Part shown: one piece after another, positions 2,169-38,188 of the stretch | Numbering within the stretch: the first letter of the stretch is position 1 | Layout: the number at the start of each line of letters is the position of its first letter | Assembly (NCBI GenBank): GCA_009103225.1 | Contig: RHPI01003516.1 | Span: 86,062-150,061 of the forward strand | Direction of reading: 5' to 3' | DNA length: 64,000 nt | Origin: Chlorokybus atmophyticus | Taxonomy: Eukaryota; Plantae; Mesostigma and Chlorokybus algae | Made by a program: the position numbers and the translations under genes | The notes under the pieces: generated by a model | Told to the model about the DNA's origin: nothing | The model's input: only the letters and a program-made list of their open reading frames with translations | Databases searched by the model: none

Positions 2169-2213
2169 TAGCTGAGCTATGGAGCTGGAACCTCCCTAGA
2201 AGCTCAGGGGGGG

Positions 2214-2448: not shown

Positions 2449-2450
2449 CT

Positions 2451-12018: not shown

Positions 12019-12632
12019 GACGTGCCAGATGGTGGTACATAAATGATGACGGTGGACACTGACCTGGACTTTTGTAGCAGCGGCGACCCTTATCCCCGGG
12101 TAAGACTTAGTGCTGTTTTTGAGCAAATCTTTGTACTAGGATACGAGATTGACTACAAGTGTACTGCGGATGCGTGTTGTTTTGCAAGGTCTTTATGCGA
12201 GATTAACAAAAGACGGTCAAGCCATTGAGAAGACTCGGAGGTGTTAGCCATTGCTGCCATTGTAGCCGTGTACGACCAGAAGTTATAAACTAGGGCATGT
12301 TATGAATGACATCGAGCTTGGTCTAACAATGTACGCTAACGAAGACATAGTACGGGCAAAGTGCAGCAAGCAAGCAAATCAGAGCCGCAACAAGCAAGCC
12401 TTGCAATATGTGATCGTAGGCCCTTGATGCTAATGTCACAGGCGGTGCAGGTTGGATCATGGCTGAACCGTCGCAATTGGTGGGACAATGGCAGCCGGGA
12501 AAGCGGCATCTATGTCTGTTCCGGCAGTGGCAGGGCCCTCACCAGGACAAGTAATTGCTATGAAAGACGACCCCGACTTTGGCACTGAATTGGAGATCAT
12601 GCAGTATGCCAAGGGCGACTTAAAACCTACAC

Positions 12633-13195
12633 TGTAACGTGGGGCTTAGCCGACTAAGCCATGGTAGCAAAAGTCGCTGCCATGAGAGGTTGTGTATTGC
12701 TTATTAATGCTTCATAAGCCCTTCTTAGCCTATTCCACATTAACCGGCATTACATTCAACCCGGCTTTAACCGCGATTGTACCTGCACATCTTGGCCCTT
12801 CATGACCGGCAGGACTTGCTCGCGTCCGGTCATGACCAGCCATTAGCCATTACCGGTCATGCCGCGTAGTTTTCCGCGGCGACTTGCCACGTTGCCGCGC
12901 GCAGGAGCGACTCTGCGCGCCGACTCAGTCAGCTTCACCTCACAGCTTATTATTAACCATTCACACTAACTGCTTTGGATCGTTTCCGACGGTCGCCAAA
13001 AATCTACCCACTCGCGCGCATCTTGCGCCCGGTGGGATTTGATCCCGCGACCTTTAGAGCTCCGATTACCAATGTAACGCGGGACTTAGCCGATTAAGCC
13101 ATGGTAGCAAAAGTCGCTACCATGAGAGGTTGTGTATTGCTGAATGAATGCTTCATAAGCCCTTCTTAGCCTATTCCACATTAACCGGCAATACA
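12633..13195 (-). mobile_element. TRIM (563 bp)
   Basis: 122/123-bp direct repeats at 12633-12754 and 13073-13195 with TGTA...TACA ends, TSD TACAC/TATAC, PBS-like TGGTAATCGGAGC on the minus strand, and no ORF. Confidence 0.85.
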
Positions 13196-13824
13196 TATAC
13201 CCTTGCAAGACGACATGTATATACCAGAGCACCCACTTACGAAACGCCCTCTTACTTTGGTGTGAAAAAGCTTGGTATACGACTATCTGTTCGCAGTTGC
13301 TTGATTGCGCACACAATCTAACACAAGCTGACTTTTGTGCAGATCGTATATCATACAAGAGCGACAAACGCAACAAGGCCTATGTGGAGTTTTATGCTGC
13401 TGTAAACCAGGCGCATGGTGATGTTATCAAAGACATATATAGACCTTGAGATTCAGATGCATGTGAAAGGGAGCGTCTGGTACCAATACCAACTTGACGA
13501 AGCCGTAGTGATACCTTTTACGCCCTTCCGAGCCAGTTTGCATAATGCAGTTTTGCGGGTTTCCGAGCCTGAACGCTTCAGAGTTGTTCGCAGTACTAAA
13601 ACCATGCACGTCCAGCCACTTATCCATGATTAGATCTCCTAGTGATACACATTTTCTATCCCCCATGCCTTCACGAGGTTGAGCACAGACTGCAACACCC
13701 ACGTTAGGAGCGCAATTCCACACAGCCTAACAAGTGCTGTGACAATTGTCACACAGCCCCTATGTGGCTTTTACATTCTGCCAGTTGCTCTCTGGCCATG
13801 CGTTCACACAGTCCAAAAAACTTT

Positions 13825-15851
13825 GGACGGTCCAGGATGCGGGCCCGTCGTGCGGCCGTCTTGATCTCAATCTCTGCAAGGGGTCAGGTTAACGATCACC
13901 AACTCAGGCTCCTCCTCCTCTGCCCTATCGATGGCTGCAGATATAGACAAGCTAGTGACTATAGCGGGAGCGGCATGTGGAAAGACGGCTGCTGGACTAT
14001 GCAGCGACGCAGATGCTATGGTGCTGGCGAGCTCGCCATAGCCATCAATTCGATGCAGATCAGCAACAAACTTGCAGACATCGTGTGCTTCATGGTCCAT
14101 ATACCAAGCAGCAATGTGGAAAGAACTTATCTGATCAGTCTTTGTTCTTCAAAGCTTGATGTCACATCTTAAAATAGAACTTGATGATGAATTCGTCCAA
14201 CGAGGTGGTGCCAGCACGTCTGGAGAATCGCAGGGATGTGGTTGAGCTGGAAGACTCCATCTCGTAGTCATCGCTATCGGACGATTGTGGGAAAGCTCGA
14301 TGGCGAGGAGTAGATTGGAACGGTGGAAGCCGGAGACAGAATGCGAGCCTCTTCTACTGCGATTGCTGCTCTTGTCGCTGGTCCGCTCGTAGATGAGATC
14401 GGAGGTTGGGCTCCAGCTGCTAAGGTCACCCTCTATTAAAGAGAATGGGGTGTGTCACAGCCCATTCAACCACAAAAGACTTAGTGCTTTTATCATCGAT
14501 TTATGGTAATTTAACGTACCTTCCCGTTACATCCCCCCCACTTAAGAACGCTGACGTCCTCGGCAGCTGGCTCGCATCAGCTGGGGAAGCATCCCAGGGG
14601 TCTGATCAGGGTTGGTCACCGGCCCCACTGCCCAAGAACCGGCCAATGTAGGCCCATACCGATCAACGCGCGCATAGTGCGCCGCTGCCGGCCCCACAGG
14701 TCTCGTCGCCGCGATAGGTAGGTCGAGCCCTGCCGCACCGACTGAACTGGTCAGTTCGGCGCGACTGCCATTAGGCAAGTCGCGACCCATCGATAATGGC
14801 ACTTATAAAGTGACCATTTACGATGTTATTAGATGGAGAAACAATGACCGCGGAATTCGTGTGCAAGGCAGGAATCAAACCCGGGTCTCAAGCTCCGATG
14901 ACCAATGTCACAGCCCACTCGACCATAAAAGACTTGGTGCTTTTATGGTCGATTTGTGATAATCTAATTTACCTTCCCGTTACAGGGTGGGCCTGTTCAT
15001 ACTGCTAGTCTACAGGTGAAAGTGTATGCAAGGTAGAGTGCTTGTGCTCTACCGTCTGTCGTGATGCTGCTACCACTGACCACACTAGTGCTTGTGTGCA
15101 CACTATGTGACGACAGTGGCAACGCAAGCACGGAGATGTATCCCCAGGTACAGACTGCACTACATGATTCAGAATGCGACGCACTCACGGAAGCAAAGAG
15201 GATGACACTATGAGTAAACAAGCCACTACAATAGGTAGAGCTGTTTACAAAGTTCTTTGCAAGAGTGGATGATGTACTACACTGTGAAGTGAGGTGAATG
15301 AACAAGCAACTCAGAGATGCTTTGTTCTAATTGATGCAGCAAACACACCATCACCAAGCTTTCAACAATAGCAAGCACAGCGCACAAGAGAATACATTGT
15401 GTCTCACGTGGTAAGGCACTCCTTGGCAACCAGAGGCAATCCTTCCAGTTCAAGTCGCTTCACAAGCTCTTAAAGCCGGAGTCTCTGCTCTTAAAGTTCA
15501 CTCACAGGGTCATCAGCAAGTCTGATGACATGACATCTTACTTATATATGTTAAGTCATGACTGTGCAGTGCCACGCGAGCACCAGGCCAACGGTCACAT
15601 CGAGACCGTATGCTACCACGAAAATGTCTTAAGACCACATATAGCATTTGAGCTAATAATTGATTCCTAACTAATCAGCTACGCTTCCTACAGAGAGGTC
15701 TATAGAGTAGCCCTAGCTACATGCTACATGGAATACGAAGTAGCTAGCAGTGGACTGGGGCGCGCGCAGTCTTTATACTGGTAGCCCGGGCTTGGGGCTG
15801 GATGTAGGCATGCTCGAGGAGGACTAGCATGCGAGGGTATTTGGCATGACA
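13825..15851 (-). mobile_element. G-family copy 2: A end, leader and 5' gag, truncated
   Basis: Starts TGTCATGCC at 15851, has r at 15213-15226, and gag homology to 25336-26256. Interrupted by a TRIM. Confidence 0.85.
14453..14984 (-). mobile_element. TRIM (532 bp) inserted at the G gag start
   Basis: 79-bp repeats at 14453-14531 and 14906-14984, TSD GGGTG on both sides, PPT AGTGGGGGGA (minus, next to 14532) and PBS-like TGGTCATCGGAGC. Confidence 0.92.
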
Positions 15852-17163
15852 ACTGGATGCTGGTGTGCTTAGGGAGCATTATTTCTTTGTGCAGTATCCA
15901 AGTATCCCTGTCTTCCATTGTTTCCTTTGTATCATGGCAAGATTAAAAGCAACTAAGGTGACGTCCACACATTGCTTCTTGCCACAGGGGGTGATATCTC
16001 AAGGAGGTGCCATCCCAATCTCGGTGTCTGCCGGTACTCACCGCGTCTTTTACAATCAAAGACTCTTTTAAATGGTAAAGAGCAATGTATGGAGAAAATC
16101 TAAACACTGGCACATTGTATTACCTACTCGCTAACGAAAGGTTGGCAATGATGAGTCTTAAAGTTGAAGAGTATTTGCAAGCTTTTGCGCATAAGTTGTT
16201 TGAAAAGCTGCCGCGTGTGTGGCAGCGCTAACACCTGCAACACAAAGCGATGCTTGTATACTCCGCATCATTTGCATGTAGGCTCTTGAGCTGCCGGTTT
16301 AGTAATATTTAGTTTCAAGTAAGCACGGTTGTGGTGCCTAGTTTACAGCCTTCATCTTGCAGACAATGTCGGTAACAGCGGTGGTGAAGGCGTCCGTCGC
16401 AACCGGTGAAATCTTGCTTCACACTTCTTATACGAATTTGTTAGCCACAATATTAATCACACCGCGTATAGCATCAGCACAAGCACCACCACGGGTTATG
16501 CTGATCACTTTAGTAGTTCATGGGTCGACAGCAGGAGCATGGGGACCGTCCACATGCATACACGCACAGTTTTGCATCACCAACAAAAGAATTTGGCAAC
16601 AGCACAAACCGCTTATCCATGCTATGCGTTGAGCCGCACCCACCTTCGCCGTGTAGCGCCTCAGTTGCTTGAGCTCAACGCACAACCATTACATGCGCTA
16701 GACCTATAGCGCAGAACTGCAACTGGCGTGAAAAGTGATGACAGGACTGCAAACAGCGTTGTACATAGACGGCATCACAGCAATTGTGCACATGCACCAA
16801 TTACTGGTTGCCAGTGAGTACCACCCCGATCATTACCCCAAGCCTGCGCATTATTTATTCATGCAAACACAAGCACCTTGTCGTGCCTGTCATGGTCGAG
16901 GGCAACCTTGTCTCGGACAGGCTGCAGAGGAGTGCTAGTGCTGCACGCATGCTAGTGCCGTGCACTGCATTGGAGTCATGCAAGCAAAAGACAACCCCCC
17001 AATCGTGGGCATAGGCTTGAAGATGAGCCTACGCGGTGTTTAGTGCAGTGGACGAGCCGATGTTGCTCGCCACCTTTGTGTACAGACTGTGTCGTAGTGC
17101 ACACAGTCAACAAGCCACCCCCCCTGAGATTCTGGGGTAGCCCTCTGCTCCAGAACTCAGTTC

Positions 17164-20100
17164 CTACCGACTGTGTGGGGGACCGTTGATGCGGCAGTCA
17201 TCGCACCAGTACTCCCACAAGGGTACTGCGTCCAGTGGAGGGTCAAGGCAGTAGCAGTGCATGCCTTGATTACAGCCGTCGCATAACATCATCAATGGGT
17301 CGTCGTCGGCGCTGCCACACTTCTCGCATCGGGTGCTGCGCAGCGGACGCGGGTGCTGGATCTTGGTGAAGCCAGCAATGTAGGGGAGATGACAGGGCGC
17401 ACAGTTGACCATGTTGTCCTTCATGCGCTCGCCTCGTTGTCCCAACAGGTCCAGTACCCCTGTGGGGTGCACCTTCAATACCTTGTAAACAGCACGCCCG
17501 ACGGAGGTATCGAGGGTGTCGCGTGTAGACGCCATACGGTAGACGAAGTCTCCTGACTCGAAGCGGCGCTCCCGCTCCTTGTAGAAACCACTGCGCACAC
17601 GCTCGTAACGCAGCGTGTCGCGGTGCTGCGCGATGCGCAGGTTGTTGAAGGCCATGGGGACTGTGTGTTCGAACAGCGCACTGCGCACTGTCAGATCATA
17701 CAACATCTCGTCGGGGTTGTCGAGATTGTCCACCACTCTGTCGACCTCCTGCTGTGCGCGGAAAGGGAGCAATGGCTGCCTTCCGAACAGTAGATAGTAT
17801 GGGCTATACTCTCGCAGGGCTGCCTGCTTGGACAGCCGGTAGCCCATTGCTACCCATGGGAGGTGATCATCCCAGGTATTCTTCTCGTAGGCGAGGACGT
17901 ACTTGCGCAGTGCCTTCTTGATGGTCTGCACGGTACGCTCGGCGAGGCCGTCGGCCTGCGGGTGGTCGCGTGAGGTGCGACGGTGGTCGATGAAGCATCT
18001 GTCGATAAGCTTGTCGAAGGCTCCTCTGAACTCCGTACCCTGGTCGGTGATGACTTCAGCGCAGCTGCCGAAGCGTCCGAGTACATGGGAGAGGAAAGCC
18101 TGGGCTACTCCCTCACTGCTCTTGTCGGGCAGGGGCACCAGCTCCACCCACTTGGAGAAGTGCTCGATCATGACGAGGATGTAGCGGTTGCCTCGCGCTG
18201 AGGGCGCTAGGTCTCCGAGGATGTCCAGTCCCCAGCGGTAGAACAACCCGGAAATGGGAAGGGGATGCAAGGTGGCATTGCGCGTGTTGAGGCTGGCGCG
18301 AACCATGTCACACTGCTGACAGTTGCTGACGAACTCCCGCACCTGTCTGTGCACCCCATACCACCAGTACTGGGTCCTGACCAGGCTGACCGTGCGCTTG
18401 ACACCGAAGTGCCCGAGCTCGGTGTGAAGGGAGGAGATGATGCCTTCACGTGCAGCTGGTGTGGGGACCTCCTGATCTGCATCTTGTATCCGTCGATACA
18501 GCCTGTCGTTGGCCCAGCGGTAACGCTGAGTGCGTTGCCGGACGCGGTCCTTCTCGCGTGCGCTCATGCCTGCTGGAAGTTGTCCAGTCTGAAGCAGTGC
18601 GAGCGATGGCTCGTCCAGCCAGATGTCTTGTCGTGTGTCGGTGGGTGCCAGCTCCTCATCATCCACCTCAGGGTCGGCAGCGATTGCTTCTTCTGATAAA
18701 GGATCGGTGGTGGTGATGGCGGGCTCGAGAGCGGGCATGTCCCCGTCTGCTGCTGCCTCAGCGATCTGAGTCCTGCGTCCTGAGCGTAGCGCAGCGACAG
18801 CGAACATGGTGGCCACACCTGAAGGTGCAGCTGTAGGACCCAACTCATGTCGGGCGCCTGTGGCGTCGTTGGTGCTGAGGTGGGGGTTACGGCTGAGGCC
18901 ATCCGCATCCTGGTTGGCAAGGCCTGCGCGGTGTTCCACCTCGAAGTCGTACTCCTGGAGCAGCAGCGCCCATCGTGCTAACTTTCCTGTCAAGTGCTGG
19001 TTGTTCATTAGCCACTTGAGGGGTTGATGGTCAGTGACCAGTTGGAACTGCCGTCCAAACAGGAAGGGTCGGAAGAAGGAGATGGCCCACACTGCGGCGA
19101 GACACTCCCCTTCGTAACTGCTGTAGTTGGCCTCAGCACTGTTGTTGCTGCGGCTGGCGTACGACACTACGCGCTCCTTCTTGTTGTTGTCGTGCTGTAC
19201 GAGCACGGCCCCCATGCCGAGCTTGCTCCAGTCTGTGTGCAGGATGAACGACCTGGTGTAGTCAGGGCGTTGCAGAATGGGAGCTGTGGTGAGGCGGAGC
19301 TTCAGCTCCTGAAAGGCCTCCTGTTGTGCCTCCTTCCACAAGAACTCGGTGTCCTTCTTCAGTAGTTCGTTGAGAGGCCTTGCGATCTTGGCAAAGTCCT
19401 TGACAAACCGGCGGTAATAGTTGGCAAGGCCGAGGAAGGCCCGCAGCCGCGTGAGGTCTGTGGGGGCAGGGATAGCCACCAGTGCCTCCACTTTGGCCTG
19501 CTGTACGTACACACCATGGGGCACAATCATGTGTCCTAGGTAGGGTACCTTGTGGGTGAAGAAGGTGCACTTGTCAGGGTGCACCGTCATCCCGACTTCC
19601 TTCAGCCTCTGTAGCACCTCTTCGATGTGCTGGAGATGCTCCTCATTGCTGTGACTGAAGATGAGGATGTCGTCGATGTAGCAGCGCGCGAAGTCCAACC
19701 CCTTGAGGGCTTTGTCCATGACGCGCTGGAACTTGGCCGGAGCGTTCTTCAGTCCGAAGGGCATGACCTTCCACTGGTACAGCTGCCGGTTTCCCCAGAA
19801 GGAAGTCTTGTGCTTGTCCTCCTCCTTGATGGCGATCTGGTTGTACCCTTGGCGCATATCCAGGATACTAAAGACCGTGCAGTCTCCTACATCGTCAAAG
19901 ATGCCTTCTGCGGTAGGCATTGGATACCTGTCCTGCTTGGTCTTGTTGTTGAGGGGGCGATAGTCGCCACACATGCGCCGGTCTGTCCAGTTGCCTGCTG
20001 AATCTTTCTTCAGGGGCATGACGGTCGCGGCCGCAAAGTCCGATGTGGACTCCTCGATCAGGCCTGCATCTAGCAGCGCCTTGCACCTCTGTTCCACCAA

Positions 20101-21402
20101 GTCTTCTTCTAGCTTGGAGAGGCGGTACTGTCTTCTGAACACCGGTTCGGTGTCCACTAGTTCAATGTCCATCTGGTATGCTGAGCAGATGCCCAGCTCC
20201 TTCACACTGAAGCTGAATTGGCTCCTCCACTTGTTGAGGAGAGCCTCGAGTTGCTCTCGAGTCTGGCCTGTGGCCAGCGGTCCAATGGCGTGGGACCACG
20301 AGGTAGCGTTGGCGACCACTGGAATGTCTTCCACAGTGACTGCTGCCTGCTCCTCCATGTGGGCGGTCTCGAGGGCGGTGTGTGCTGCTTTGGTCTCTGA
20401 AAAGCGAGCAATCCACCCCCCAGCCAGGTGTTCGAGCTCCTGGAAGGACACATGGCGGTCCTGGAGAGCAAAGCACATTTCCAAGTACCACACCATGCTG
20501 TTCTGATCCATGGCGCGCCCCAACAACTGACATTGTTGACTGGTTGTCAGCGTGGAGCCTGTGATGCTGCTTGGAAAGAATCCCATAGCACGCTCGCGCT
20601 CGCGGGCATTGGGTTCTTCCAGCTGTCCAGTGTTGGAGTCCAACACCATGCCGTCGCCTGCATTGCGGAACGCGTAGGAGCCTGGATAGGATACAAGTGT
20701 GGGTAGCGCGCGGCGCGGCTGACCAGGCTGGTTGCACTGGTAGAAGTGGTGGTGGTCAAGGCGTGTGACTGGTTGCGCTGTGCGTCCAGGGTCCAGGATG
20801 TCATCGACGACGAGATTTCGTGGCCGATTGCTGTATAGGTACTCTGCCAGAAACAGGTCTTCCACAATGGCCAGGTTGGTCCACTTGGCGCGGACGCGGT
20901 GTGCACGAGATCCATGACGCGCGGCGTTGATTTTGAGAGGATGCCCCAGCAAGGAGCATACTTGCCGATAGGCCTTGGCGACGTGGTGCCGCTTGTCATC
21001 CTCGGAGTGCACATTCTCGATGATGTACCCCAAGGGTTTAGCGATCTGACTGATCTGTAGGAGTTTGATGACTCTCATTAGCTCCCAGAACAGCTGTGAG
21101 CGAGGATCCGAGAGCCCTTGGCCTCTGCCTGCCCTGGAGTGCCCTTGACACTCCCACCCTGCTATCAGCAGGTCAATGTTGCCGACTGCCTGCAGGTGAT
21201 CCTTGGTAATCCAGCGGATGTCCTGCGGTAGAGCCTTCTGGCTCCCTTGCAGTGCCGACAGCGGTAGCTGCTGCGGGTAGCGCTGGTGCAGCTGTCGTAA
21301 ATGATGGCTCAGAGCTTCCTGTGCATGAGGCATGAGGGTCAGGGTCACAGTAGAGGTACTTGGTGACTGTTGTTCCTGTGTTGAGGACAGCCGCAAGCCC
21401 AC
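17164..21402 (-). CDS. pol: G pol: C5 cytosine methyltransferase, RT, RNase H, integrase and PHD finger
   Basis: 1412-aa open frame with MTase motifs (GWECQ, ENV, RVRAKWTN, ERERAMGF), RT 'YIDDILIFS', RNase H 'LHTDWS...YEGECLA', IN HHCC plus D,D35E, and a C4HC3 PHD. Confidence 0.95.
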   Translation of the reverse strand: MGLRLSSTQEQQSPSTSTVTLTLMPHAQEALSHHLRQLHQRYPQQLPLSALQGSQKALPQDIRWITKDHLQAVGNIDLLIAGWECQGHSRAGRGQGLSDPRSQLFWELMRVIKLLQISQIAKPLGYIIENVHSEDDKRHHVAKAYRQVCSLLGHPLKINAARHGSRAHRVRAKWTNLAIVEDLFLAEYLYSNRPRNLVVDDILDPGRTAQPVTRLDHHHFYQCNQPGQPRRALPTLVSYPGSYAFRNAGDGMVLDSNTGQLEEPNARERERAMGFFPSSITGSTLTTSQQCQLLGRAMDQNSMVWYLEMCFALQDRHVSFQELEHLAGGWIARFSETKAAHTALETAHMEEQAAVTVEDIPVVANATSWSHAIGPLATGQTREQLEALLNKWRSQFSFSVKELGICSAYQMDIELVDTEPVFRRQYRLSKLEEDLVEQRCKALLDAGLIEESTSDFAAATVMPLKKDSAGNWTDRRMCGDYRPLNNKTKQDRYPMPTAEGIFDDVGDCTVFSILDMRQGYNQIAIKEEDKHKTSFWGNRQLYQWKVMPFGLKNAPAKFQRVMDKALKGLDFARCYIDDILIFSHSNEEHLQHIEEVLQRLKEVGMTVHPDKCTFFTHKVPYLGHMIVPHGVYVQQAKVEALVAIPAPTDLTRLRAFLGLANYYRRFVKDFAKIARPLNELLKKDTEFLWKEAQQEAFQELKLRLTTAPILQRPDYTRSFILHTDWSKLGMGAVLVQHDNNKKERVVSYASRSNNSAEANYSSYEGECLAAVWAISFFRPFLFGRQFQLVTDHQPLKWLMNNQHLTGKLARWALLLQEYDFEVEHRAGLANQDADGLSRNPHLSTNDATGARHELGPTAAPSGVATMFAVAALRSGRRTQIAEAAADGDMPALEPAITTTDPLSEEAIAADPEVDDEELAPTDTRQDIWLDEPSLALLQTGQLPAGMSAREKDRVRQRTQRYRWANDRLYRRIQDADQEVPTPAAREGIISSLHTELGHFGVKRTVSLVRTQYWWYGVHRQVREFVSNCQQCDMVRASLNTRNATLHPLPISGLFYRWGLDILGDLAPSARGNRYILVMIEHFSKWVELVPLPDKSSEGVAQAFLSHVLGRFGSCAEVITDQGTEFRGAFDKLIDRCFIDHRRTSRDHPQADGLAERTVQTIKKALRKYVLAYEKNTWDDHLPWVAMGYRLSKQAALREYSPYYLLFGRQPLLPFRAQQEVDRVVDNLDNPDEMLYDLTVRSALFEHTVPMAFNNLRIAQHRDTLRYERVRSGFYKERERRFESGDFVYRMASTRDTLDTSVGRAVYKVLKVHPTGVLDLLGQRGERMKDNMVNCAPCHLPYIAGFTKIQHPRPLRSTRCEKCGSADDDPLMMLCDGCNQGMHCYCLDPPLDAVPLWEYWCDDCRINGPPHSR

Positions 21403-24400
21403 TGCCTATGCCTCCGAACAGCTCCAGCACGGTGATGCCTTGTCGTCGGCGGAACATGTGGAACTCCACAACTCCCGTAGCTATGTGGTACTGATCCTGT
21501 ACTGTAGCCTGGTCTTTGTAGGCAGGGAAGTGTGCAGTGAGCTGAGGCCTGGTCAGCAGCATGTGTGCTGCTACTTGTGCGCTCCAGCGACGCTCGGATG
21601 GCTCCTGAAAGGCCACTTCTTTGGTGACAGTCTCCTGAGACTCATCGTACGGTGTAGGGGAGTCCTCTTCAGCGTTTAGGCTCGGGCTCGAGCTCGTTGC
21701 AGTTGTCCTTGGCTGCGTTCGGGCACGAGGCACACGTGAGCTTTTTGTAAGACTGTAGGTGGCTGCTGCAGCCGATCTTCGTTGCGAGCGGTCCTTGGCC
21801 ACCAGTTCGAGAGGTAGGAATCCCTGCTCCTCTCCATCGTCCTCATCCCAATGTGGTCGAAACCATGCCTGCTCAGTCCAGCAGTCCAGCCCCATGCCGA
21901 CAGGGAAGTTGCAGTCCTGTCCCAACAGTAGGTCAAAGGACCCGGCATCGGTGACCACACACCTTTGTACAATCTCGGTGCTGTGGGAAGGGTTTAGTCC
22001 GGTGAGGCGGATGCTCACAGCCTGCTTGGTAAGGCCGAGTACCTTGTCACGGTTGCCGGTTGCGGTGTCCAGCTGATAGGGACAGGGAAGCAGCTCAGCG
22101 CTGGTGATGCCGAGATCTCGTGCGAGGTAGCGCCCAATGATGACAGGCTGTGCTCCAGTGTCCAGCATCACGCATTTGGGTGCCCGCCCATTGACGGTCA
22201 CGTGCTTGCCTTGGTTGGCAATCATGGCTGCATTGGCGTTGATGCGCAGCCTCTTGAAGCGACGGAACCTCTTGCGTGGAGAGACTGTTGCTTTATTCTC
22301 ATCTGCGGGGCCTGACCGTAGGGCAGCCAGGGCTCCTCTGCCTGATGGATCTTGTGGGCCTCCTTGTCCTCGGCTTTGTCCAAACCGTCCTTGTCGCGGT
22401 TGCTGGTACACGCGTGGTGGCCTAGGCACTGGAGGTGCTGCTGCCACCTGTCCAAGTGGAGGTGCAGGAGGGTTGACCCTCTGTACAGCTGTTGTCATGC
22501 CAGGAGGAGTGGCCAGTGGCTGTGGCGGGAACCCTGGAGGACCTGGTGTTTGCGGGACTGCCTCTCGTGCAGCCTGCTCCTCTGCATAGGTCCATCGCAC
22601 AGCATGGGCTGCCTCTCTGACTAGTGTACCTTCCCATGTCGCCGTCGCATTGTTGTCCGCATCTATATAGCGATGGTTCTGAGGCATGGGCTGCAGGTAC
22701 ACTGCGCGTAGGAGCCGCGCTCTCATGTCGTGGGTGATGATGGGCACCCTGAGGATTACTGCCATGTAAGCATCCCATCTGCCGTTGACCACTCCCACTT
22801 CCAGCACTGTTATTGCTCGTGTGCGTACAGTGAGCTGGGTCTCTGGCTGTTGAACATGCTGCTCGTAAGCAGTGGCGATGCGCCTGCGCTGACGTCCTGC
22901 CTCCACCCCTGGCAAACTCAGTATCGCCTCCAGAGCTCCCTCCAGAGTGTCAGTGGCGGCGGAAGCCACTTCATCATAGGCTTGCCGTATGGAGCGAAGG
23001 AATGCGTCCACCCACGCTATTCTGGCGCCGAAAGCGAACAACGGGACTGCGGGATGGTTGGTAACCAGCCACGTCACTAACCGTGCGCGTGCCGCGTTGC
23101 CACTGTCTCGCATCCCAAGCATCTGCCGCAGTCCGATGCCTTCTTGCCGATGCAGCATGGTTGCTTGTCGCAACAGAGCAGTGCGTAGTTGTTGCTCTCC
23201 AACCAGTCCTGCTCCATCTCTTTGTGTACACCCTTGTGGTGTAAGGTAGCCCCTCCCTGGCTCCCTTTGGTCCTCAGGTAGATCCTCCACCAGCGCAGGC
23301 AGCAACGGGGCGATCACCCCCCTGGTTTGTTGAGCCAACGCCCTCGCTTGGTCAGAGTTGGTCCCGACGAAGAGCGGAGTGGTGCTGGAGGATGGACCAG
23401 CAGTTGGTGACTGAGGTATTGGTGCACGTGTAGCTTCAAGAGCTTGTTCACGTGCAGCAATGGCGGCAGCTTGATCCTGTCGCCAATGATATGCTTGTTC
23501 CAGTGCGTGGTAGCGCTGATGAAGACGAGCGGTTGTAGGAGGTCCGAGTGCTTCATCAGTGCCCAAAGGCAGGTCGGCTGCGTCGGCGATTCGCTGCTGG
23601 ATGGCGTCTCGGCGGTCCCGATACGTGTCCAACGGGCTGGGTTCAAAGGTGGTGGTTGGCATGCGTGCAGGCTGGCGCGGGGCGGTCTGCATGTTGTTGT
23701 GCAACGCCCAGAACAGCTGCAGAGCCAACTCCAACACTACAGGTGGGCTGTAGCTGATCAAGAACACCCTGTCACGCATCGGGGGTGCAGTGCCAGCAAG
23801 GATCTCATCTTCTAACTGGTGTTGAGTGAGTGCTGGAAGGGTGTGAACCTCTGGCAGCGGGAAGACGCGATCATCGCGGGCGACACGCGTGGTGCGCTCC
23901 CCCCCCCGACCGAAGGCGATGGTAGTGGGGTCTGCTCCGCGCAGGATGGTTTCCCATGCTCGTTCAGCTTGCTGACCAGTTGGGACAGCCTGAGTGACGT
24001 CGAGAGCGGGCAGAGTGGCTGCGCGCGTCGCTGCAGAGACAGCGGGCTCGACGATGGCCATTGTGGCAGTTGCGACGGTATCGGTCAGTGGTGCGAGAGT
24101 TGTCTCAACGCCCCCGGACAGAGGCGCTGCTGCAGTGGGAAGTGCACCGCCCACTGGTGCAGATTCGGTAGTGATGGCGGCTGCTGCCAGTGTGCTCACC
24201 AGCGTTGGCGTCACGGTGCCCACCGGTGTACCAGGTCGTGGTGCAACTGGAGTGGGTAATGCTGACGTTGATGGAGTCGATGTTGTAGCCGGTGTGGCTG
24301 TTGCTGCGGAGGCAGCACCACTGGTGGCTTCGGAGGAGGTGCCTGCTAATGTTGTTGCAGCTTCCCCTCGTGCTCGTCGTGATGGTTGCACGCGGGACGG

Positions 24401-24520
24401 AGTGTTCCTGTCTCTCTCGCGTTTTGCAGCCATCAGCGCCCATCGGGCCGTGTAGCAGGCGCGGTAGTCCTGCTCCTTGTCTTCCTCCAAGCGTGCCATG
24501 CGTGCCATTAGGGCTGCCAT
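21173..24520 (-). CDS. G polyprotein middle part: Ala/Thr/Pro-rich region, unknown domain, aspartic protease and MTase motif I
   Basis: 1115-aa ORF with 'VMLDTGAQPVIIG' and 'VLELFGGIGSG'. It joins the pol frame if the tandem CATGAGG duplication (21324-21337) is collapsed. Confidence 0.9.
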   Translation of the reverse strand: MAALMARMARLEEDKEQDYRACYTARWALMAAKRERDRNTPSRVQPSRRARGEAATTLAGTSSEATSGAASAATATPATTSTPSTSALPTPVAPRPGTPVGTVTPTLVSTLAAAAITTESAPVGGALPTAAAPLSGGVETTLAPLTDTVATATMAIVEPAVSAATRAATLPALDVTQAVPTGQQAERAWETILRGADPTTIAFGRGGERTTRVARDDRVFPLPEVHTLPALTQHQLEDEILAGTAPPMRDRVFLISYSPPVVLELALQLFWALHNNMQTAPRQPARMPTTTFEPSPLDTYRDRRDAIQQRIADAADLPLGTDEALGPPTTARLHQRYHALEQAYHWRQDQAAAIAAREQALEATRAPIPQSPTAGPSSSTTPLFVGTNSDQARALAQQTRGVIAPLLPALVEDLPEDQREPGRGYLTPQGCTQRDGAGLVGEQQLRTALLRQATMLHRQEGIGLRQMLGMRDSGNAARARLVTWLVTNHPAVPLFAFGARIAWVDAFLRSIRQAYDEVASAATDTLEGALEAILSLPGVEAGRQRRRIATAYEQHVQQPETQLTVRTRAITVLEVGVVNGRWDAYMAVILRVPIITHDMRARLLRAVYLQPMPQNHRYIDADNNATATWEGTLVREAAHAVRWTYAEEQAAREAVPQTPGPPGFPPQPLATPPGMTTAVQRVNPPAPPLGQVAAAPPVPRPPRVYQQPRQGRFGQSRGQGGPQDPSGRGALAALRSGPADENKATVSPRKRFRRFKRLRINANAAMIANQGKHVTVNGRAPKCVMLDTGAQPVIIGRYLARDLGITSAELLPCPYQLDTATGNRDKVLGLTKQAVSIRLTGLNPSHSTEIVQRCVVTDAGSFDLLLGQDCNFPVGMGLDCWTEQAWFRPHWDEDDGEEQGFLPLELVAKDRSQRRSAAAATYSLTKSSRVPRARTQPRTTATSSSPSLNAEEDSPTPYDESQETVTKEVAFQEPSERRWSAQVAAHMLLTRPQLTAHFPAYKDQATVQDQYHIATGVVEFHMFRRRQGITVLELFGGIGSGLAAVLNTGTTVTKYLYCDPDPHASCTGSSEPSFTTAAPALPAAATAVGTAREPEGSTAGHPLDYQGSPAGSRQH

Positions 24521-24697
24521 ATGGTCATCAGCTGGTGGGTTGGCTGAAGCCTTGGCGGCAACAGCAGCAGCGCGCGGACGTGTCTCTGGTCCCTTACGCT
24601 GAGGAGGTCTGTTCTTCCCCCTGTAGCCTTGCTCTTCCTTGCGAGCACTGGCATTGTTGTTGTTGTTACTGCCACCAGCGTTGTTGCTGTTGTGGGC

Positions 24698-26256
24698 TCA
24701 AGTGTTGTTGCTATTGTAGCCACTGAAGTGGTTGCCAGTGTGGCCCCCAGTGTTGTTGCTGTTGTAGCCACTGAAGTTGTTGGCAGGGTGGTTGTAGCTG
24801 TTGGCGGGCCTCAACTCTGGGAACTTGAGCCAGCAGACTGACTCCAGATGACCAATCTTGTGACAGTGGTCGCAAACCAAAGTTGAGTATTCTTCGGTGC
24901 ACTCCTTTTGGTAGTGCCCATGCCGTCCACAGCGATGACACAGCACAGGGGCAGCAAGTGCAGCATGAGCTGACCGTTTCCCTTTGTCGCGTGCTGGTGG
25001 AGCGTCCCGGCCACGGTCGCGGCGAGGAGGCTCAGTTGTCGTGCTGACTACAGGCCGTACGGCTCTGCGGTTGGTGTCCAGCACTGCCTTCTCATACACC
25101 AAGCGCTTGTGGATGGCTTGTGCAGTCTCGAAGGCTTCTTTGAGAGTGTAGCCAAGGGGCCTGCTGTAGTTCAGAGTCAGGCGTGTCGACTCGCTCAGAG
25201 CAGCATCCAACTCATTGACGTATATTACTACAGCAGCCTCCTCACTGACAATCTTGTAGTCAGTGTCTTTCAGCAGACCTTCCAGTCTGGAGTATAAGCG
25301 GAGGGGATCCTCATTGGGCTTGCGTCGGAAGCGTCTCAACTCCTCAACCTTGCTGGTGGTCTGAGGAGGGAAGGTACGAGGAGGTAAGGTACGAGGAGGT
25401 AAGGTAGGCGCAGGGCAGCGTACAGGTCCTTGAGTGGAGAATCAGAGATGGCAGCACCTACGGTGATGGCTGGTGCGCGCAGTGCTACTGACCCGAGGGT
25501 GAAAGCGCTGCCTCCTGCACGAGAGCCAGGTGTTGCTGGAGGTAGAGGAGTACCCCACTCTGCGGCTGCCGCTTGCTGTACAGCTCTTTGTTCCTCAATG
25601 ATGATGGCAGAACGGTCAAGGATGCGGACTCGACGTGTGGCCTCCTTGGACTCAACTTCTGCAGGGGTCAAGTTGACAAGTACCAACTCTGGTTCCTCCT
25701 CCTCTGCCTGCTTGAGAGCGGCAGCTATGGTCAAGCCTGTTACTGCAACTGAAGTGGCAGGTGGAATGACACCTGCTGGACGGTGCAGGGATGCAGATGC
25801 TATGGTGCTGGCAAGCTCGCCATAGCCGTCTACTCGATGCAGTTCAGCAACGGACTTCCAGACATCGTGTGCTTCATGATCAAGATACTGAGCAGCAATG
25901 TGGAAAGAGATCTCATCTGACCAGTCTTTGTTCTTCAGTGCTTGCTGCCGCATCTTGGAGTGCCGCAACTTGATGATGAACTCATCCAGCGAGGTGGTGC
26001 CGGCACGTCCGGAAAAGCGCAGGGATGTGGTTGAACTGGAAGATTCCATCTCGTTGTCGTCGCTGTCCGATGATAGTGGAGAAGCTGGAGGACGAGGAGT
26101 AGAGTGGAGCGGGGTGAAGCTGGAGATGGAGCGCGAGCCTCTGCTGCTGCGGTCGATGCTTCCGTCACTGGTCCGCTCGTAAGTGAGATTGGTGGTTGGG
26201 CTCCAACTGCTGAGGTCACCCTCGTCTATTGGGGAGAACGGGGTGGGCCTGCTCAT
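24698..26256 (-). pseudogene. gag: G gag with two CCHC zinc knuckles
   Basis: ORFs 25336-26256 and 24698-25339 are split by a 15-bp tandem expansion at 25371-25400. Knuckles are CHRCGRHGHYQKEC and CDHCHKIGHLESVC. One in-frame TGA (24698-24700) separates this from the next ORF. Confidence 0.88.
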
Positions 26257-28235
26257 ACAGCTGGTCCAGAGGTGAAAGGGTAGAGTGCTTGTGCTCTACC
26301 GTCTATCCTGATGCTGTTACCACCCAACACACTAGTGCTTGTGCGCACTGTGTGATGACAATGATAACGAATGCCCAGCGATGTATTCCTGGGTGCAGAC
26401 TGAACTATCTGATGCAGATTGCAACACACTCACTTGTGCAAAGAGGGTGACACTGTAAGTCAACAAGCCACTACGATAGGTAGTGCTGTGGACACAGTTC
26501 TTTGCATGAGTGGATAGAATGATACACTGTTAAGTGAGGTGAATGAGTGTGCAACACGTGGATACAACACCCTGACTACTGAAACAACACACCACCGTCA
26601 AGCTCACAGCAATGGCAGGCACAGCGCACAAGAGTATGCACCGTGTCTCACGCAGTAAGGGAATTCTTGGCAACCGGGGCAGCGTGCTTCCAGTTCAAGT
26701 CGCTTCACAAGCTCTTTAGAAACAGAGTCTTTACTTCTTGGTACTCCTAGTACTCACAGTACTCACTTACAGTGTCACCAGCCAGTCTGGTGACGTGACT
26801 TCCTACTTATACATGTCAAATCATGACTGTGCAGTGCCACACGGGCACTAGGCCAACGGTCACATCGAGGCCTCATGCTATTTCGGAAATCTCCTAAGAC
26901 TTGATATAGCACATGTGTTCTTAACAGACTTGCAACTGATCAGCTACGCGCGGTCCCTACAGACAGGTCTATAAAGTAGCCCTAGCTACAGGCTACATGA
27001 GTGATACAGTAGCTAGCAGTAGGCTGGGGCTCGCGCGGTCTTTATGCTGGTAGCCCTGGCGTGGGGCTGGGTGTAGGCATGCTTGAGAAGAACTGGCATG
27101 CGAGGGTAGATGGCATGACAACCTTCCTGTGTGCACACAAGTACAGCCTTGCCATATGCATCAAGTAGTCAAAGAAGCCGAGTAGGCAGACAAATCGACA
27201 ATGCAGTCGACGAGAGCACGCTCACCCAACCATTGCAAGACGCCATGACATGACAAATGCTAACCACTCCCTGCTGCAACCCAAGCTGCAATATGGAGTG
27301 GATTCCCTTTCGCATCCATGTCTTTCCCAACCACAACAGTGACAACAACTAACAATTGATTTTGCAAGGCAAGGTAGGTGCAAGTGCACATATGTCAAGT
27401 ATTAGTTGTTGAACTGTGTGCGCTGGGGTGGGGGAGGTGGGGGGTATGTGCTTGCGCACGAGGCATGCATTAGCCATATGTTCACATGATTTATTGCCTT
27501 TTTTGCGACAGCTGCCGCACATGCCGTGTCGCTACACACACATTTTGTGATTGCGACTATTGTTGTTATTGTCGACATACATCTTCTGCTCTGCGGCACA
27601 AGCTGGAAACAAAGAAGCGCTCTCATGGGCTTATTGCCGCAGCCGGGTTGGCAACTGCTATGCATACCGTAGTAAGTGGCAATCAGCGGGCCAGAACAGG
27701 TGGCCACAATCAAATCAGCTGCGCCAGGATGCCAAACAACCGGGCTGCAGGTGTTCGCACACCGGCGGACTTTCATACCATTGCGTGCATTGTTTTGCTG
27801 CTATACACATGTTACATACATATGTTGTCATTCTTTGTGTTTTCGTTCAAGACATGCAGTGCTCAGATCTGCTAAACAGAGCAATCAGTTTGACTTCATC
27901 AATCGCAGTAAGCTCAGTCGGACTGCACAATCTACACCAAATGTATTGCCTTCATATATGTGCATGTATGCACGGCTTACCAAACAGCATGGCATGCTGT
28001 GGCATCAACTGTGCCCAAACTTTTGGCATGTCTTTCCAGAACTCAACGTTGCATCAATTCTTTTTGGTGCACATTGCTTTGTTGACCAAGGTACTGTGCA
28101 CCATAACGTGCACACACTACCTGATTGGCAGTGTGCTGATTGAGCACGTGTGCCAACATCATGCACACCAGATGTAAGCCCATCTCAGGCCTGCGCCCCT
28201 ATTCTTTCCTGGAGCACCTCATGTTACTTCAACCA

Positions 28236-28743
28236 TGTAACAATTAGGGCCCGACCACTAGGCTATCGTAGTAAAAGACACTGCCATGAGTGAGGTCTAT
28301 CACAAGTTATCCCAATTTGTGACATTGCTCCCCAATTTAACCCATGGGTTCCTCATAATCCAATGAGGCACTAGCCCACGTTGCCGTGTTCGCGACCGTA
28401 CCACGATCGATCCGCCCTCGGCCTGTTGGATCCGGCCCACAAACGGTCCTGACCGACCGAACGGCCATCCTCACCGCGCGACCTGCCATCGCAGAGCGAC
28501 CGCTCGCGCGGCCTTAGGCTGAACTAGCTCGGCGCGCTGGTTGTGATCCCGCGCCCAGCCTAGGGCAAGCCGCCCTAAATGTTTTTGTTTTTGCCTTGGA
28601 TCCGCCTCAATCCCCTACGAGAATTGAACCTGAGACGTCAAGCTCCGTAACCATTGTAATAATTAGGGCCCGACCACTAGGCTATGGTAGTAAAAGACAC
28701 TACCATGAGTGAGGTCTGTCACAAGTTATCCCAATTCATGACA
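28236..28743 (-). mobile_element. TRIM (508 bp)
   Basis: 89-bp repeats at 28236-28324 and 28655-28743 with TG...CA ends, perfect TSD AACCA, and PBS-like TGGTTACGGAGC on the minus strand. Confidence 0.92.
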
Positions 28744-29199: not shown

Positions 29200-31576
29200 T
29201 GTCATGCTTAGTGCCCACACATACCAGCCTTCATCGAGCATGTCTACATCAAAACCATTGCCCGGCCTACCAACATACCAACGCGCGCGCGTCCCTGACT
29301 ACTAGCTAGGTCATGACTCCAGAGTAGCTCACGACCATAGCCTACATAGGCACCGCGCGTAGCTATTCAGTTGTAAGTTCTGTTCTATATCAAGTGACAA
29401 TTGCTGTGGAAATAGCCTTGATATGACCGTTAGCTTATGTTCTGAACGGTCATGATTTGACTTGTTTAAGTAGTCATTGTGTTCACCGGGTCGGCTGGTG
29501 ACACTGTGAGTGAGAAAGCTAAGAGCTTGTGAAACGACTTGAGCTGCAAACACGCCATCCCGGATACCAAGAACCCCCTCACTGTGTGAGAGCCCGTGCA
29601 TGCTCGTGCGTGCATCGTGCTTTTCATCGCTGTGACCTTGGTGTGCCGGGTTGCAGTGTGTTTGTTGGCATCAGTCAGGGCATAGTACCCACGTGTTGCT
29701 TGCTCATTCACCTCAATTAACAGTATAACACATTTTTTGCTCATGCAGAGAACTGTGTAAACAGCACTACCTATAGTAGTGGCTTGTTGACTCACAGTGT
29801 CACCCTCTTTGCTATGGTGGGTGCGTTGCATTCTGCATCAGATAAGTGCAGTCTGTATCTGAGGACACGTCCCCGTGCATTCGTTATCACTATCATTACA
29901 TAGTGCGCACATAAGCACTAGTGTGGTGAGTAGTAGCGGCATTGAGACAGGCGGTAGAGCACAAACGCTCTACCCTGCATACACTTTCACCTTTGGACTA
30001 GCTGTATGAGCAGGCCCACCCCGTTCTCTTCAATGGACGAGGGTGACCTCAGCAGCTGGAGCCCAACCTCCAACCTCACCTACGAGCGGACCAGCGACAG
30101 GAGCAATGATCGTAGCAGCGGAGGCTTACGTGCTGTCTCCGACTTCATTCCGTTCCTGTCCACTTCACGGCATCGAGCTTCCCCACTCTCGTCCGACAGT
30201 GACGACTACGAGATGTAGTCTTTTAGCTCAACCACGTCCCTGCGTTTCTCCAACCGTGCTTGCACTACCTCGCTGGATGAATTCATCATCAAGTTGTACT
30301 CCAAGATGCGACAGCAGGCTCTGAAGAACAAAGACTGGTCAGATGGGATCTCTTTTCACATTGCCGCTCAGTATCTGTGTGACGGTGCTCGTGCCTTGTC
30401 ACCTGTGAGTTGGTCCAATCCACAACCCTCTCACCAAGACACGGTATTCACACCGGAACCTTGCCCCCTCTGCCAAGCACACACGCGCGCCCCGCCACTC
30501 GCGTACGCACGCGCATGCGCTCGAAGCTACACACCGACTTGTGTAGCGCCCTGGATCGTCACACAAGCAAGCACACACCAGTGGACACACGCTAGCAACC
30601 CCTTCTAGCCACCACCAAGCTTGCACACAAGAAACTAGGGAGCTAAAGGTTGTATTGCAAATTGTAGATTGTCACTTTTATACCTACCAGTCTGCACATG
30701 CTACTGTAGACGATTCTAGCGCTAGACGGAACAAGAAGCTAAGGTAGTTGCAGAATCTTGTATTACACTTCTAGAGCTTTCCAACGCACCAAAGATCTCA
30801 CAATTTGCTGCTCATATCAGTTATACTACTTGGCGCCAGGCCCTTCCAGAAATCTGGTCGAGCCCTTCTCGACTGGCCCTCCGTTTTTGGCACCTTCCGG
30901 ACTGGTCTTGGGGCCCCGGTCGATATCCGCGGCAAATCTCATAACTCGCCGATATCCGCCACAAGTCATAAAAAAACATGTATCTTACAAATAAGGCCTA
31001 AAACGGCCATGAAAATCATAAAATTTGGCCTTGACTGTTACAATCTGGATCATGAAGCACATGATGTTTGAAAGTCTGTTGCTGAACTGCATCGAGTAGA
31101 TGGCTATGGCGAGCTCGCCAATACCATAGCATCTGCGTCACTGTACAGACCAGCAGCGTCTTTCCACCTACCACTTCCGTTGCAGTCACCGGGTTATCCA
31201 TAGCGGCAGCTATTGACAGAGCAGAGGAGGAGGAACCTGAGTTAGCGATCGTCGACCTGACCCCTGCAAAGATTGAGATCAAGACGGCCGCGCGACGGGC
31301 CCAGATTCTGGACCGAATCTGTTGCCATCCTTGAAGAACTGCAGCCGTTGATGTGGGCACACCCCTACCTATGGCAACACCTAGCTCTCGTGCGGGAGCC
31401 AGTGCTTTCACCCTCGGGTCAGTGGCACTGCGCGCACCAGCCATCACTGTAGGTGCTGCCATTTCTGACTCTCCACTCAAGGATCTATACGCTGCACTTC
31501 GTCGCACCTTCCCACCGCAGACCACTAGCAAAGTGGAGGAGTTGAGGCGGTTCCGGCGCAAGCCCAACGAGGACCC
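29200..31576 (+). mobile_element. G-family copy 3: A end, leader and gag 5' half, cut by copia A'
   Basis: Starts TGTCATGCT, has r at 29779-29792, and gag 'MSRPTPFS' at 30006. Confidence 0.88.
30378..31042. mobile_element. Solo LTR (665 bp) inserted in G gag
   Basis: TGTGAC...GTTACA ends with TSD ATCTG at 30373-30377 and 31043-31047. The gag sequence resumes seamlessly after it. Confidence 0.88.
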
Positions 31577-36723
<5,147 letters not shown>

Positions 36724-37996
36724 CACACGGCTTGACGTTGAAGGACCATGCATGGTCCTTTCACGGACCCCGCGGACCATGCATGATCCGTACTCCACGG
36801 GCCAGGACTGCCTGGTCCGCGGGGGACGGACCGTTCCTGGTCCATTCGGGGCCCCGCGGCCCGTGAATGGCTGGCGCGGCGTCGCGCACCACGCATGGTC
36901 CGTGCCGCACCATCCATGGTGCGGCACGGACCAGTAACGTACGCTGGCCCTTGAACGCGGACCAGGTGCGGTCCCGCAGTCCTGTGGCCCTACTAGCACG
37001 CACCGTACATGGTACCGCACTGTCCGCGTCGCAACATGTACGTTCTGGCACGGACCAGTGACCGCGGCCCTGCCGCTATGTATCATGTATCATGAGTAGG
37101 TAGCAACCTATGCAAGGTACAATAGATTGCCTAACTGCCTGATTGCACAAGTGCACTTTATGTGTTGATTGACAAGCCGCACCGACTGTCGGCTATACAC
37201 CCGTGGACAGCCGCAAGTGCATAGCCGCAAATGGTCGGCGGCTGATTGACAGCCGGCCGGCTGTCAATCAAGCTGTAACGGGCTGTCTATGCAATCAACA
37301 TACTTCATAGTACCGTACGTGTATTTGCAAAAATTTGTGGACATGCACTATTAACATGTTCTATGCGTTTATCTAAGTATCTACGTATATATGAACATTA
37401 TACATGTGCATTGACGTATGCACATGTATAATGTTCATATACGTAGATACTTACATTATTATATATATTATAAAATACCTGTATATAAATGTTAGCGTGT
37501 GCACAAATGAATCTAATCGTATATGCATAGATACGCAGGTTAAGATGATTATATCAGTAGTATTTAGGTTGAGCCGTATACAAGGTATGTCTCATATAAA
37601 AATACGTACAAGAAGTATACATAAATAACGTTACTTATTATAATAGCCTCTTATGAGACCGCAGAATGGTTGACAGCCCCGACCAAGCATTGTGTCCAAC
37701 CAACCAGTAAATACCTACGTTGGTGCCGCAATGCGGTTTTAATATTTATATCATGTAAACGTATATATGTAAGTATACATGATATAAATACTTTATACAC
37801 AAATGCTTACATACATACACATGTAGGTGTGTGTATGCGCACGCAAGCAGGATGTTGACAACCCCTAACAAGGTTACATACTCATGGACAGCCCCCAACA
37901 AAGCATTGTAGTTTATAAATCTTGGCAGCCCCCGAGTTGCGGCTGTCTGTGTCATCAATAATGACCTAAAATAACATAATACCGTTGATTATGCTG
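36724..37996. mobile_element. CACAC-terminated EnSpm/CACTA-like element, long R arm
   Basis: Starts CACACGGCTTGACGTTGAAGGACC, is rich in GGACC/GGTCC subterminal repeats, and is colinear with 57074-58270. Confidence 0.8.
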
Positions 37997-38188
37997 TCAA
38001 TGTTAAAAGGTATTCAACTTTGTCGGCGTTTCATCTATTTTGCTAATTTAGTCATAGTTGACTATGTCGATGCATTGTGTGCAACCGGGCATTTCTAAGA
38101 GGTTGCCCTATTGCGGCAGTCGCCGGTTAGTGCTTGCGCGTCATATGTTTCCATTCCGCGCGGTACCCTACCAGTCGATGGGTGTTTA

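Follow-up and report, generated by a model that had tools for sequence, protein, structure and literature searches.

The 64,000-nucleotide window analysed here, from contig RHPI01003516.1 of the alga Chlorokybus atmophyticus, contains a Ty3/Gypsy retrotransposon, a dead member of a multi-copy family. Its Pol includes a putative C5 cytosine methyltransferase domain related to DNMT3, with Glu-Cys (EC) in place of the Pro-Cys (PC) dipeptide at motif IV. EC is a family-wide trait. On balance, we favour a reading in which the enzyme is active in intact copies and methylates the element's own cDNA, and the ends of the element are rebuilt by way of longer-than-unit or circular cDNA. The fusion and the split ends are already published; our literature search turned up no earlier account of switching between EC and PC, of two domain orders, of a range across green plants or of the symmetry of the junction.

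A DNMT3-related domain within a Gypsy polyprotein

Six-frame translation and Pfam analysis placed gag, protease, C5 methyltransferase, reverse transcriptase (RT), RNase H, integrase and a PHD finger in this order on the minus strand of the element (Table 1). Gag followed by protease, RT, RNase H and a DDE integrase is the protein complement of Ty3/Gypsy, and the TG..CA ends with a 4-bp target duplication lie within the range of this group (4-6 bp). Beyond the borders of the element read depth was zero in runs X1-X4 (eight sequencing runs were listed, five with part of the stretch and two with at least half of its words). No tyrosine recombinase family was detected by Pfam in the four main frames, which carry rve and H2C2 instead; given the DDE integrase, the lack of a recombinase family and the presence of a target duplication, membership of the DIRS, PAT or Ngaro groups was rejected. 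Rfam gave no match over positions 16500-27500.

The original prediction placed a C5 methyltransferase between protease and RT, and this is borne out: all the motifs that it named are present on the minus strand, and the profile search that it proposed gave a significant match to Pfam DNA_methylase (PF00145; 40.2 bits against a cut-off of 22, E 3.8e-10) from the piece following the frameshift alone. Motif I, the motif IV Cys, the ENV of motif VI, the RxR of motif VIII and motifs IX and X are all as expected of such an enzyme; the Pro-Cys dipeptide is the one feature replaced, by EC.

Comparison of a profile built from alignment A1 (28 rows) with the sequences in the PDB returned DNMT3A, DNMT3B and DNMT3C at E 2e-17 to 2e-12 (up to 66 bits), M.HaeIII and M.HhaI at E 3e-7 or weaker (at most 33 bits) and DRM at E 5e-6 or weaker (at most 29 bits). 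A structure model of the post-break piece (303 aa, without motifs I-II; pLDDT 83) gave the same picture, the top Foldseek and VIA matches all being DNMT3 (Foldseek E 1.7e-11); it was superimposed on DNMT3 with Z 17.5 and a root-mean-square deviation of 4.0 over 244 aligned residues, the best bacterial chain reaching Z 14.4. Judged by profile and predicted fold, the domain is DNMT3-related, closer to DNMT3 than to bacterial enzymes, DRM or DNMT2. A bacterial or phage donor was rejected, as DNMT3 scores far higher against the profile. Although the mammalian DNMT3A/B/C catalytic domains are the best profile and fold matches and share the motif X Arg, they have GSPC where the focal element has GWEC, are only about 22-24% identical to it, and the element lacks PWWP and ADD domains. 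The sole named host enzyme among the homologue matches was a fish DNMT3 (P0166), and the ESM Atlas yielded generic PF00145 clusters only.

Other copies share Glu-Cys and lack the frameshift

In the focal copy a 7-bp tandem duplication splits the domain between two frames: that of the protease holds motifs I-II, and that of RT holds motifs III-X. The seven bases are absent from all contigs spanning position 21323 (depth 62.8/62.8 in X1, 46.1/46.1 in X2): the duplication is private to this copy, and the domain is indeed in frame with RT once it is collapsed. In one X4 contig, 29 bases are missing over 25296-25472, the site of a tandem duplication in gag, and the in-frame TGA of gag is likely to be a private lesion as well. 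With two frameshifts (the 7-bp and 29-bp duplications) and an in-frame stop, the focal copy is dead.

We surveyed the other copies over 21110-21360 in contigs of runs X1, X2, X3 and X5. All nine variants listed (X1, X2) are synonymous, against an expected neutral synonymous share of 0.24-0.33 (p 5e-5 to 4e-4, counting 7 sites). Among them, the Glu codon varies between GAG and GAA (depth 82.8/167.1 and 33/101.6) and the Cys codon between TGT and TGC. Elsewhere in the domain, the 40 of 949 rows that were listed hold six further variants, five synonymous and one Lys/Arg. Since contigs lose rare variants, rare PC copies could escape this survey. The pattern shows EC kept across copies under purifying selection; because its two codons vary only synonymously, it is not private to the focal copy. 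The opposite outcome envisaged by the original prediction, PC in all intact copies, was not found.

Synonymous variation among copies thus upholds the idea of a family trait, for which a supposed second copy of the domain at 54209-54335 had been adduced. That piece is no second domain copy: it spans only some 40 codons (profile positions 273-311 of 359), ends with motif IX and, having no motif IV, cannot show EC. It differs from the focal copy by 14 synonymous and 5 non-synonymous codon differences and is likely to belong to the decayed sister copy at 59196-62032.

Two motif IV states and two domain orders in the green lineage

Homologue searches returned 49, 36 and 62 proteins, most of them unnamed metagenome proteins, with 121 different representatives; the alignment comprised 121 rows (the window plus 120, with fish DNMT3 P0166 excluded). 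Motif IV reads PC in 58 rows, EC in 39 and DC in 1; the other 23 do not cover it or are misaligned there, so that EC accounts for 39 of the 98 readable rows. Neither Ala nor Gln intermediates occur among the aligned rows, although Pro and Glu codons are two bases apart. In none of the 39 EC rows is the Cys, the motif VI Glu or either motif VIII Arg replaced. Metagenome contigs scanned with a sequence pattern yielded at least 120 loci from few samples, which are therefore not independent hosts; the 120 listed have EC in 31 cases, PC in 10 and DC in 1, with 30 unreadable and 48 too short.

Named streptophyte hosts are Marchantia polymorpha (PC), Calypogeia fissa (PC and EC), Closterium (EC) and Sphagnum fallax (motif lost in the gene model). 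Chlorophyte hosts are Hariotina (PC), Tetradesmus (PC, from a transcriptome), Cymbomonas (EC), Haematococcus (motif not covered) and, as a weak match, Tetraselmis. Two proteins, P0055 and P0098, are filed at NCBI as products of bacterial metagenome-assembled genomes (Obscuribacterales and Betaproteobacteria) and are likely to derive from eukaryotic contigs that were binned wrongly.

The homologues fall into two architectures, both with a C-terminal PHD finger. Type A (protease, methyltransferase, RT, RNase H, integrase, PHD) is that of the focal window and the named streptophytes; in type B the methyltransferase lies between RNase H and integrase, as in Hariotina (P0027 and P0092, the latter with PC), Tetradesmus (P0145), Haematococcus (P0164), Cymbomonas (P0155) and metagenome proteins. 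The weakly matching Tetraselmis protein (P0168) is from a chlorophyte with type A order. By architecture, motif IV is EC in 16 and PC in 35 type A proteins, and EC in 21, PC in 4 and DC in 1 of type B. The two types separate both in the methyltransferase tree (one change) and in a tree of RT-RNase H (30 rows, SH-aLRT 99). In a large PC clade that includes Marchantia (P0001, P0006-P0009, P0013, P0016-P0019, P0021 and P0133-P0138), the frame stops about 290-400 residues past motif IV, and the methyltransferase is on the Gag-protease frame with RT on another; this placement could mean that the enzyme is made in Gag-level amounts.

The methyltransferase tree, built from 58 of 90 near-complete rows after thinning and rooted with fish DNMT3 (one long branch), requires four EC/PC changes. 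Five are needed after removal of two long rows and of the trait column, on a weakly supported backbone, and the starred branches of the tree without the trait column force only one. EC as a single derived clade was rejected (approximately unbiased test, p 1.3e-4). From these trees, EC and PC appear to have been swapped more than once, and the simplest reading would be one early Pro-to-Glu change followed by several returns, with EC ancestral to the family.

Glu-Cys and catalytic activity

The original prediction singled out EC as a point of interest. It is indeed unusual for DNMT3, but it is common in this family and has parallels outside it. Phage C5 methyltransferases with WASPEC carry Glu before the catalytic Cys in an unrelated context: a motif-based pattern scan found at least 120 loci encoding phage PF00145 proteins with SPEC at motif IV, an abundant family. 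Among the matches listed, 114 have motif I and 85 have motifs I and VI, and all four of the proteins scanned pass Pfam PF00145; the motif X residue is readable in 1 locus among the 120 matches listed. DNMT5 is active although Ser replaces the Pro of its motif IV (bioRxiv 2021.10.01.462825). EC is thus unusual for DNMT3 without being unprecedented, and by analogy it is likely to be compatible with activity.

The residue after the motif X Gly differs with motif IV. EC rows have Arg (20), Asn (9), Lys (2), Gln (2) or others (2), and PC rows Gln (38), Glu (2), Arg (2) or others (5). This position corresponds to R887 of DNMT3A and N304 of M.HhaI, in the cofactor pocket (PMC13594970, PMC3526304). 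The loop may simply tolerate the Glu, which could pair with the motif X Arg. Because no EC row departs from the Cys, the ENV Glu or the two motif VIII Arg, we consider that the enzyme is probably active in intact copies. In yeast, CG methylation has been shown for the related domains of SymbioDIRS-Dnmt3 (PMC5890265).

Split ends and a conserved junction

The focal element is Gypsy by its proteins and not a canonical long terminal repeat (LTR) element by its ends, since parts A and B have no more than 12-15 nt in common, the polypurine tract (PPT) precedes B1, and no TGG-type tRNA primer site was seen behind part A. The 64-kb window holds no tRNA genes. A sister-subfamily copy at the left of the window shows the order pol-B-GC-A-B, and X1 and X2 contigs join position 27120 to 16879 with GC between them, at depths (91.8 and 59.6) like that of the element body; the usual copy is therefore A-coding-B-A-B, and the focal copy lacks the A2-B2 tail.

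The B|A junction, CACGACA-nn-TGTCATG, is conserved and near-palindromic. Similar junctions occur in 17 of the 120 metagenome loci listed, of which 42 reach at least 4.2 kb downstream. A G-run precedes B1 in all ten loci displayed, and four of the five full-length loci have a 4-bp target duplication. Junctions are borne by EC (L135, L190, L195, L199) and PC (L123, L152) subfamilies alike, so split ends are not tied to EC. The pairing with split ends, which the original prediction named as a point of interest, was overstated: it has already been described for the methyltransferase-bearing KnitGypsy-Dnmt3 (PMC5890265).

Relation to described elements

That the fusion is rare rather than new proved correct, KnitGypsy-Dnmt3 of Klebsormidium nitens having been published with Gypsy domains, a non-permuted DNMT3-related domain in Pol, purifying selection and DIRS-like split repeats, the last stated in the legend of Fig. 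4c (de Mendoza et al. 2018, PMC5890265). Our element is of the same type, with an intronless DNMT3-related domain in the Gypsy Pol frame and A-coding-B-A-B repeats (the focal copy itself without A2-B2). K. nitens sequences were absent from the homologue-search matches, and kinship was judged by description. In its accessible portion, the published text makes no mention of Glu-Cys, a PHD finger, a junction palindrome or a range beyond K. nitens (PMC5890265).

SymbioDIRS-Dnmt3 of Symbiodinium likewise has DNMT3 in Pol with RT, and A-coding-B-A-B repeats, but it integrates by a tyrosine recombinase (PMC5890265), whereas the focal element relies on a DDE integrase, ends in TG..CA and is flanked by a 4-bp target duplication. 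The split-direct-repeat elements PAT, TOC and Ngaro share the A1-B1-A2-B2 layout; the focal element differs in having no tyrosine recombinase and a C5 cytosine enzyme rather than the Dam-like one of DIRS (PMC4157794). EpiLTRs/DAM-LTRs, which belong to Ty3/Gypsy too, likewise combine a DNA methyltransferase with a chromatin reader, but their DNMT is sister to DNMT4, occupies the 3' end of pol and is accompanied by DAM and a chromodomain (bioRxiv 10.64898/2026.05.21.726589).

As far as their accessible text extends, the EC state, the type B order and the junction are absent from PMC12344493, PMC6338049, bioRxiv 10.64898/2026.05.21.726589, PMC9940879, bioRxiv 2021.11.30.470311 and PMC6317226. A literature search that left the term Glu-Cys unqueried and subscription journals outside its scope found no further paper on such elements, and no report of the liverwort, moss, Closterium or chlorophyte relatives, of the type B order, of a conserved B/A junction or of EC/PC switching.

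Proposed replication and its alternatives

The replication model of split-direct-repeat elements provides a template for how the ends might be completed. Plus-strand synthesis would be primed at the G-run or PPT before B1 and proceed through B1-A2-B2; the internal A2 and B1 would then be copied so that one end regains a full A and the other a full B, leaving CA-GC-TG junctions at which nicks after CA on both strands would give TG..CA ends. We rate this scheme a little short of an even chance. Because neither end is set by a primer site, the TG..CA ends would arise at the CA-nn-TG junction, whose symmetry would let the integrase nick after CA on either strand, in longer-than-unit or circular cDNA; foamy virus integrase has been reported to cleave palindromic LTR-LTR junctions (PMC1180852). 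The focal copy, with its target duplication kept and its A2-B2 tail missing, may reflect recombination between B1 and B2 or a circle with one junction. As for the methyltransferase, it would be made with Pol and meet the cDNA inside the particle. Since Pol domains travel in the particle with the cDNA, the element's own new cDNA is the substrate that we propose, at what we judge to be evenly balanced chances. A deeper history is possible but doubtful: an ancient green-lineage Gypsy clade, either pre-dating the chlorophyte-streptophyte split or moved across it, would have captured DNMT3 once, changed PC to EC in concert with the motif X Arg, moved the domain between two sites within Pol, and passed through a DIRS-like, tRNA-primer-free circle opened by the DDE integrase at a palindromic CA-GC-TG junction; it would then be a self-methylating LTR-type element integrating from a circle junction.

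Several observations weigh against this explanation. Only four of the 17 junction loci listed have the GC spacer, the others showing AC (6), AT (5), GT (1) and TC (1); the non-GC spacers may reflect deamination decay. A two-junction circle could also yield A-B-A-coding-B, but no clear case of this form was seen, and the X1/X2 junction is best read as the integrated B1-A2 boundary. Neither extrachromosomal DNA nor a transcript was seen. Covariation of motifs IV and X is strong in raw counts but comes down to one supported independent pair (four on the best tree), and the structure model gives no side-chain geometry for a Glu-Arg contact. The CpG observed/expected ratio of the element (0.69) reveals no extra loss, as a sign of self-methylation, beyond the three Copia copies in the window (0.60, 0.68 and 0.61). 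Finally, the K. nitens Gypsy DNMT produced no methylation in yeast, a result called inconclusive by its authors (PMC5890265).

Ordinary linear integration, by which template switches would produce a linear cDNA with GC dinucleotide ends to be trimmed by the integrase, the internal B-A junction acting as template only, strikes us as rather unlikely. The TG..CA ends and 4-bp duplications are ordinary, and DDE integrases as a rule trim two bases after CA; on the other hand, the sole PPT lies before B1 and not before A, and nothing resembling a tRNA primer site follows A1.

We consider it improbable that the EC domain is conserved but slow or non-methylating, serving to bind or flip cytosine, to trap S-adenosylmethionine or the host's DNMT3/DRM partners, or to shield the cDNA, with only PC lineages methylating. 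Pro-Cys is the textbook motif, and the yeast result and the absence of a CpG-loss signature fit this alternative. Pseudo-enzymes such as DNMT3L, however, lose catalytic or cofactor residues, and these are as conserved in EC as in PC rows; DNMT5, moreover, is active without the Pro, and SPEC is found in the phage proteins, known here from sequence alone.

There is a comparably small chance that an active enzyme is aimed not at free cDNA but at RNA, or at host chromatin at or near the insertion site by means of the integrase PHD finger. That finger is present in both architectures, the type B domain adjoins the integrase, and the bryophyte PC clade has its methyltransferase on the Gag-protease frame; yet the ENV motif and motif VIII are of DNA type and the nearest relatives are DNMT3. 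The PHD finger of the focal copy apparently lacks the aromatic cage of H3K4me3 readers and presumably resembles readers of unmethylated H3K4. That EC arose as a private mutation in a decayed copy, or that the domain is a chance capture or an assembly artefact, has next to no probability and was rejected: the focal copy is dead, but its Glu and Cys codons vary only synonymously across copies, and EC recurs in homologues, including 31 of the 42 readable loci among the metagenome loci listed.

Other content of the window

Features of the focal element and its relatives are collected in Table 1. The window as a whole is eukaryotic DNA rich in repeats, among them Copia, Helitron and Gypsy elements.

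Table 1. Coordinates of the focal element, its domains and motifs, and related copies in the window
Feature	Position	Strand	Remarks
Whole Ty3/Gypsy element	16879-27120	-	10,242 bp; ends TGTCATG...CACGACA; copy form A-coding-B
Target-site duplication, left copy	16875-16878	+	ACCT
Target-site duplication, right copy	27121-27124	+	ACCT
Terminal repeat part A (5' end)	26458-27120	-	final 12-15 nt common to start of B
Gag part 1	25339-26256	-	start codon inferred; frame shifted by 29-bp tandem duplication near 25386-25414
Gag part 2	24698-25441	-	CCHC zinc knuckle 24893-24940; in-frame TGA 24698-24700
Aspartic protease	21914-22201	-	LDTGA 22151-22165; Pfam PF13650 E 6e-7
C5 cytosine methyltransferase domain, predicted DNMT3-related	20446-21502	-	motifs I-X linear, not DRM-permuted; intron-free
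Motif I VLELFGGIG	21404-21430	-	
7-bp tandem duplication	21323-21337	-	frameshift between motifs II and III
Motif IV AGWECQGHS	21136-21162	-	Glu codon 21151-21153, Cys codon 21148-21150
Motif VI IENV	21010-21021	-	
Motif VIII AHRVRAKWTN	20875-20904	-	
Motif IX ERERAMGF	20578-20601	-	
Motif X LLGRAMD	20506-20526	-	Arg aligns with DNMT3A motif X Arg
Reverse transcriptase	19525-19986	-	YIDD 19669-19680; Pfam RVT_1 E 5.5e-34
RNase H	18949-19338	-	Pfam RT_RNaseH E 1.4e-36
Integrase, H2C2 finger and DDE core	17932-18459	-	Pfam Integrase_H2C2 and rve
C-terminal PHD finger	17194-17328	-	Pfam PHD E 1.4e-6; stop codon 17164-17166
Polypurine run	17118-17125	-	directly before B, not before TG end; same placement in related loci
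Terminal repeat part B (3' end)	16879-17117	-	
Sister-subfamily copy, 3' end	1466-3270	+	integrase-PHD; B1 2216-2438, GC 2439-2440, A2 2441-3044, B2 3033-3270
Methyltransferase fragment of decayed sister copy	54211-54333	-	up to and including motif IX
Gag-protease part of decayed sister copy	59196-62032	-	72% identical

Fragments of the 5' end of the Gypsy family lie at 13827-15853, 29200-31576 and 1361-1463, all beginning with TGTCATG; the second is interrupted by a Copia element. Inside the decayed sister copy, 55170-58935 forms a 3.8-kb near-perfect foldback (95% self-complementary) whose arms match 62032-62706 and 36723-37990.

Copia elements occupy 5133-10098, 31575-37022, 47085-51989 and 52325-53872, the first three with ordinary LTR pairs, and a T-skewed low-complexity tract of 24% GC lies inside a Copia copy (34001-35000). 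The Helitron Rep/PIF1 helicase gene at 39873-43538 (37% GC) is far more AT-rich than the window and is flanked by inverted arrays of 6/12-bp G-rich and C-rich repeats (38170-39150 and 44920-45680). Three elements of about 500-570 bp with terminal direct repeats of 80-127 bp, at 12630-13196, 14453-14984 and 28231-28743, are possibly non-autonomous miniature LTR elements.

Implications

Relatives in liverworts, a moss and chlorophytes run counter to the claimed absence of such elements from land plants, for which tracheophytes are given as the example (PMC6338049), and also the listing of Gypsy-DNMT3 as streptophyte only (bioRxiv 10.64898/2026.05.21.726589). Natural EC/PC pairs in laboratory organisms, with PC in Marchantia, EC in Closterium and both in Calypogeia, make the role of the motif IV Pro and self-methylation testable, and the conserved junction offers a sharp biochemical handle on integrase elements with split repeats. 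If the integrase does cut that junction, the family would provide a natural case of circle-junction integration.

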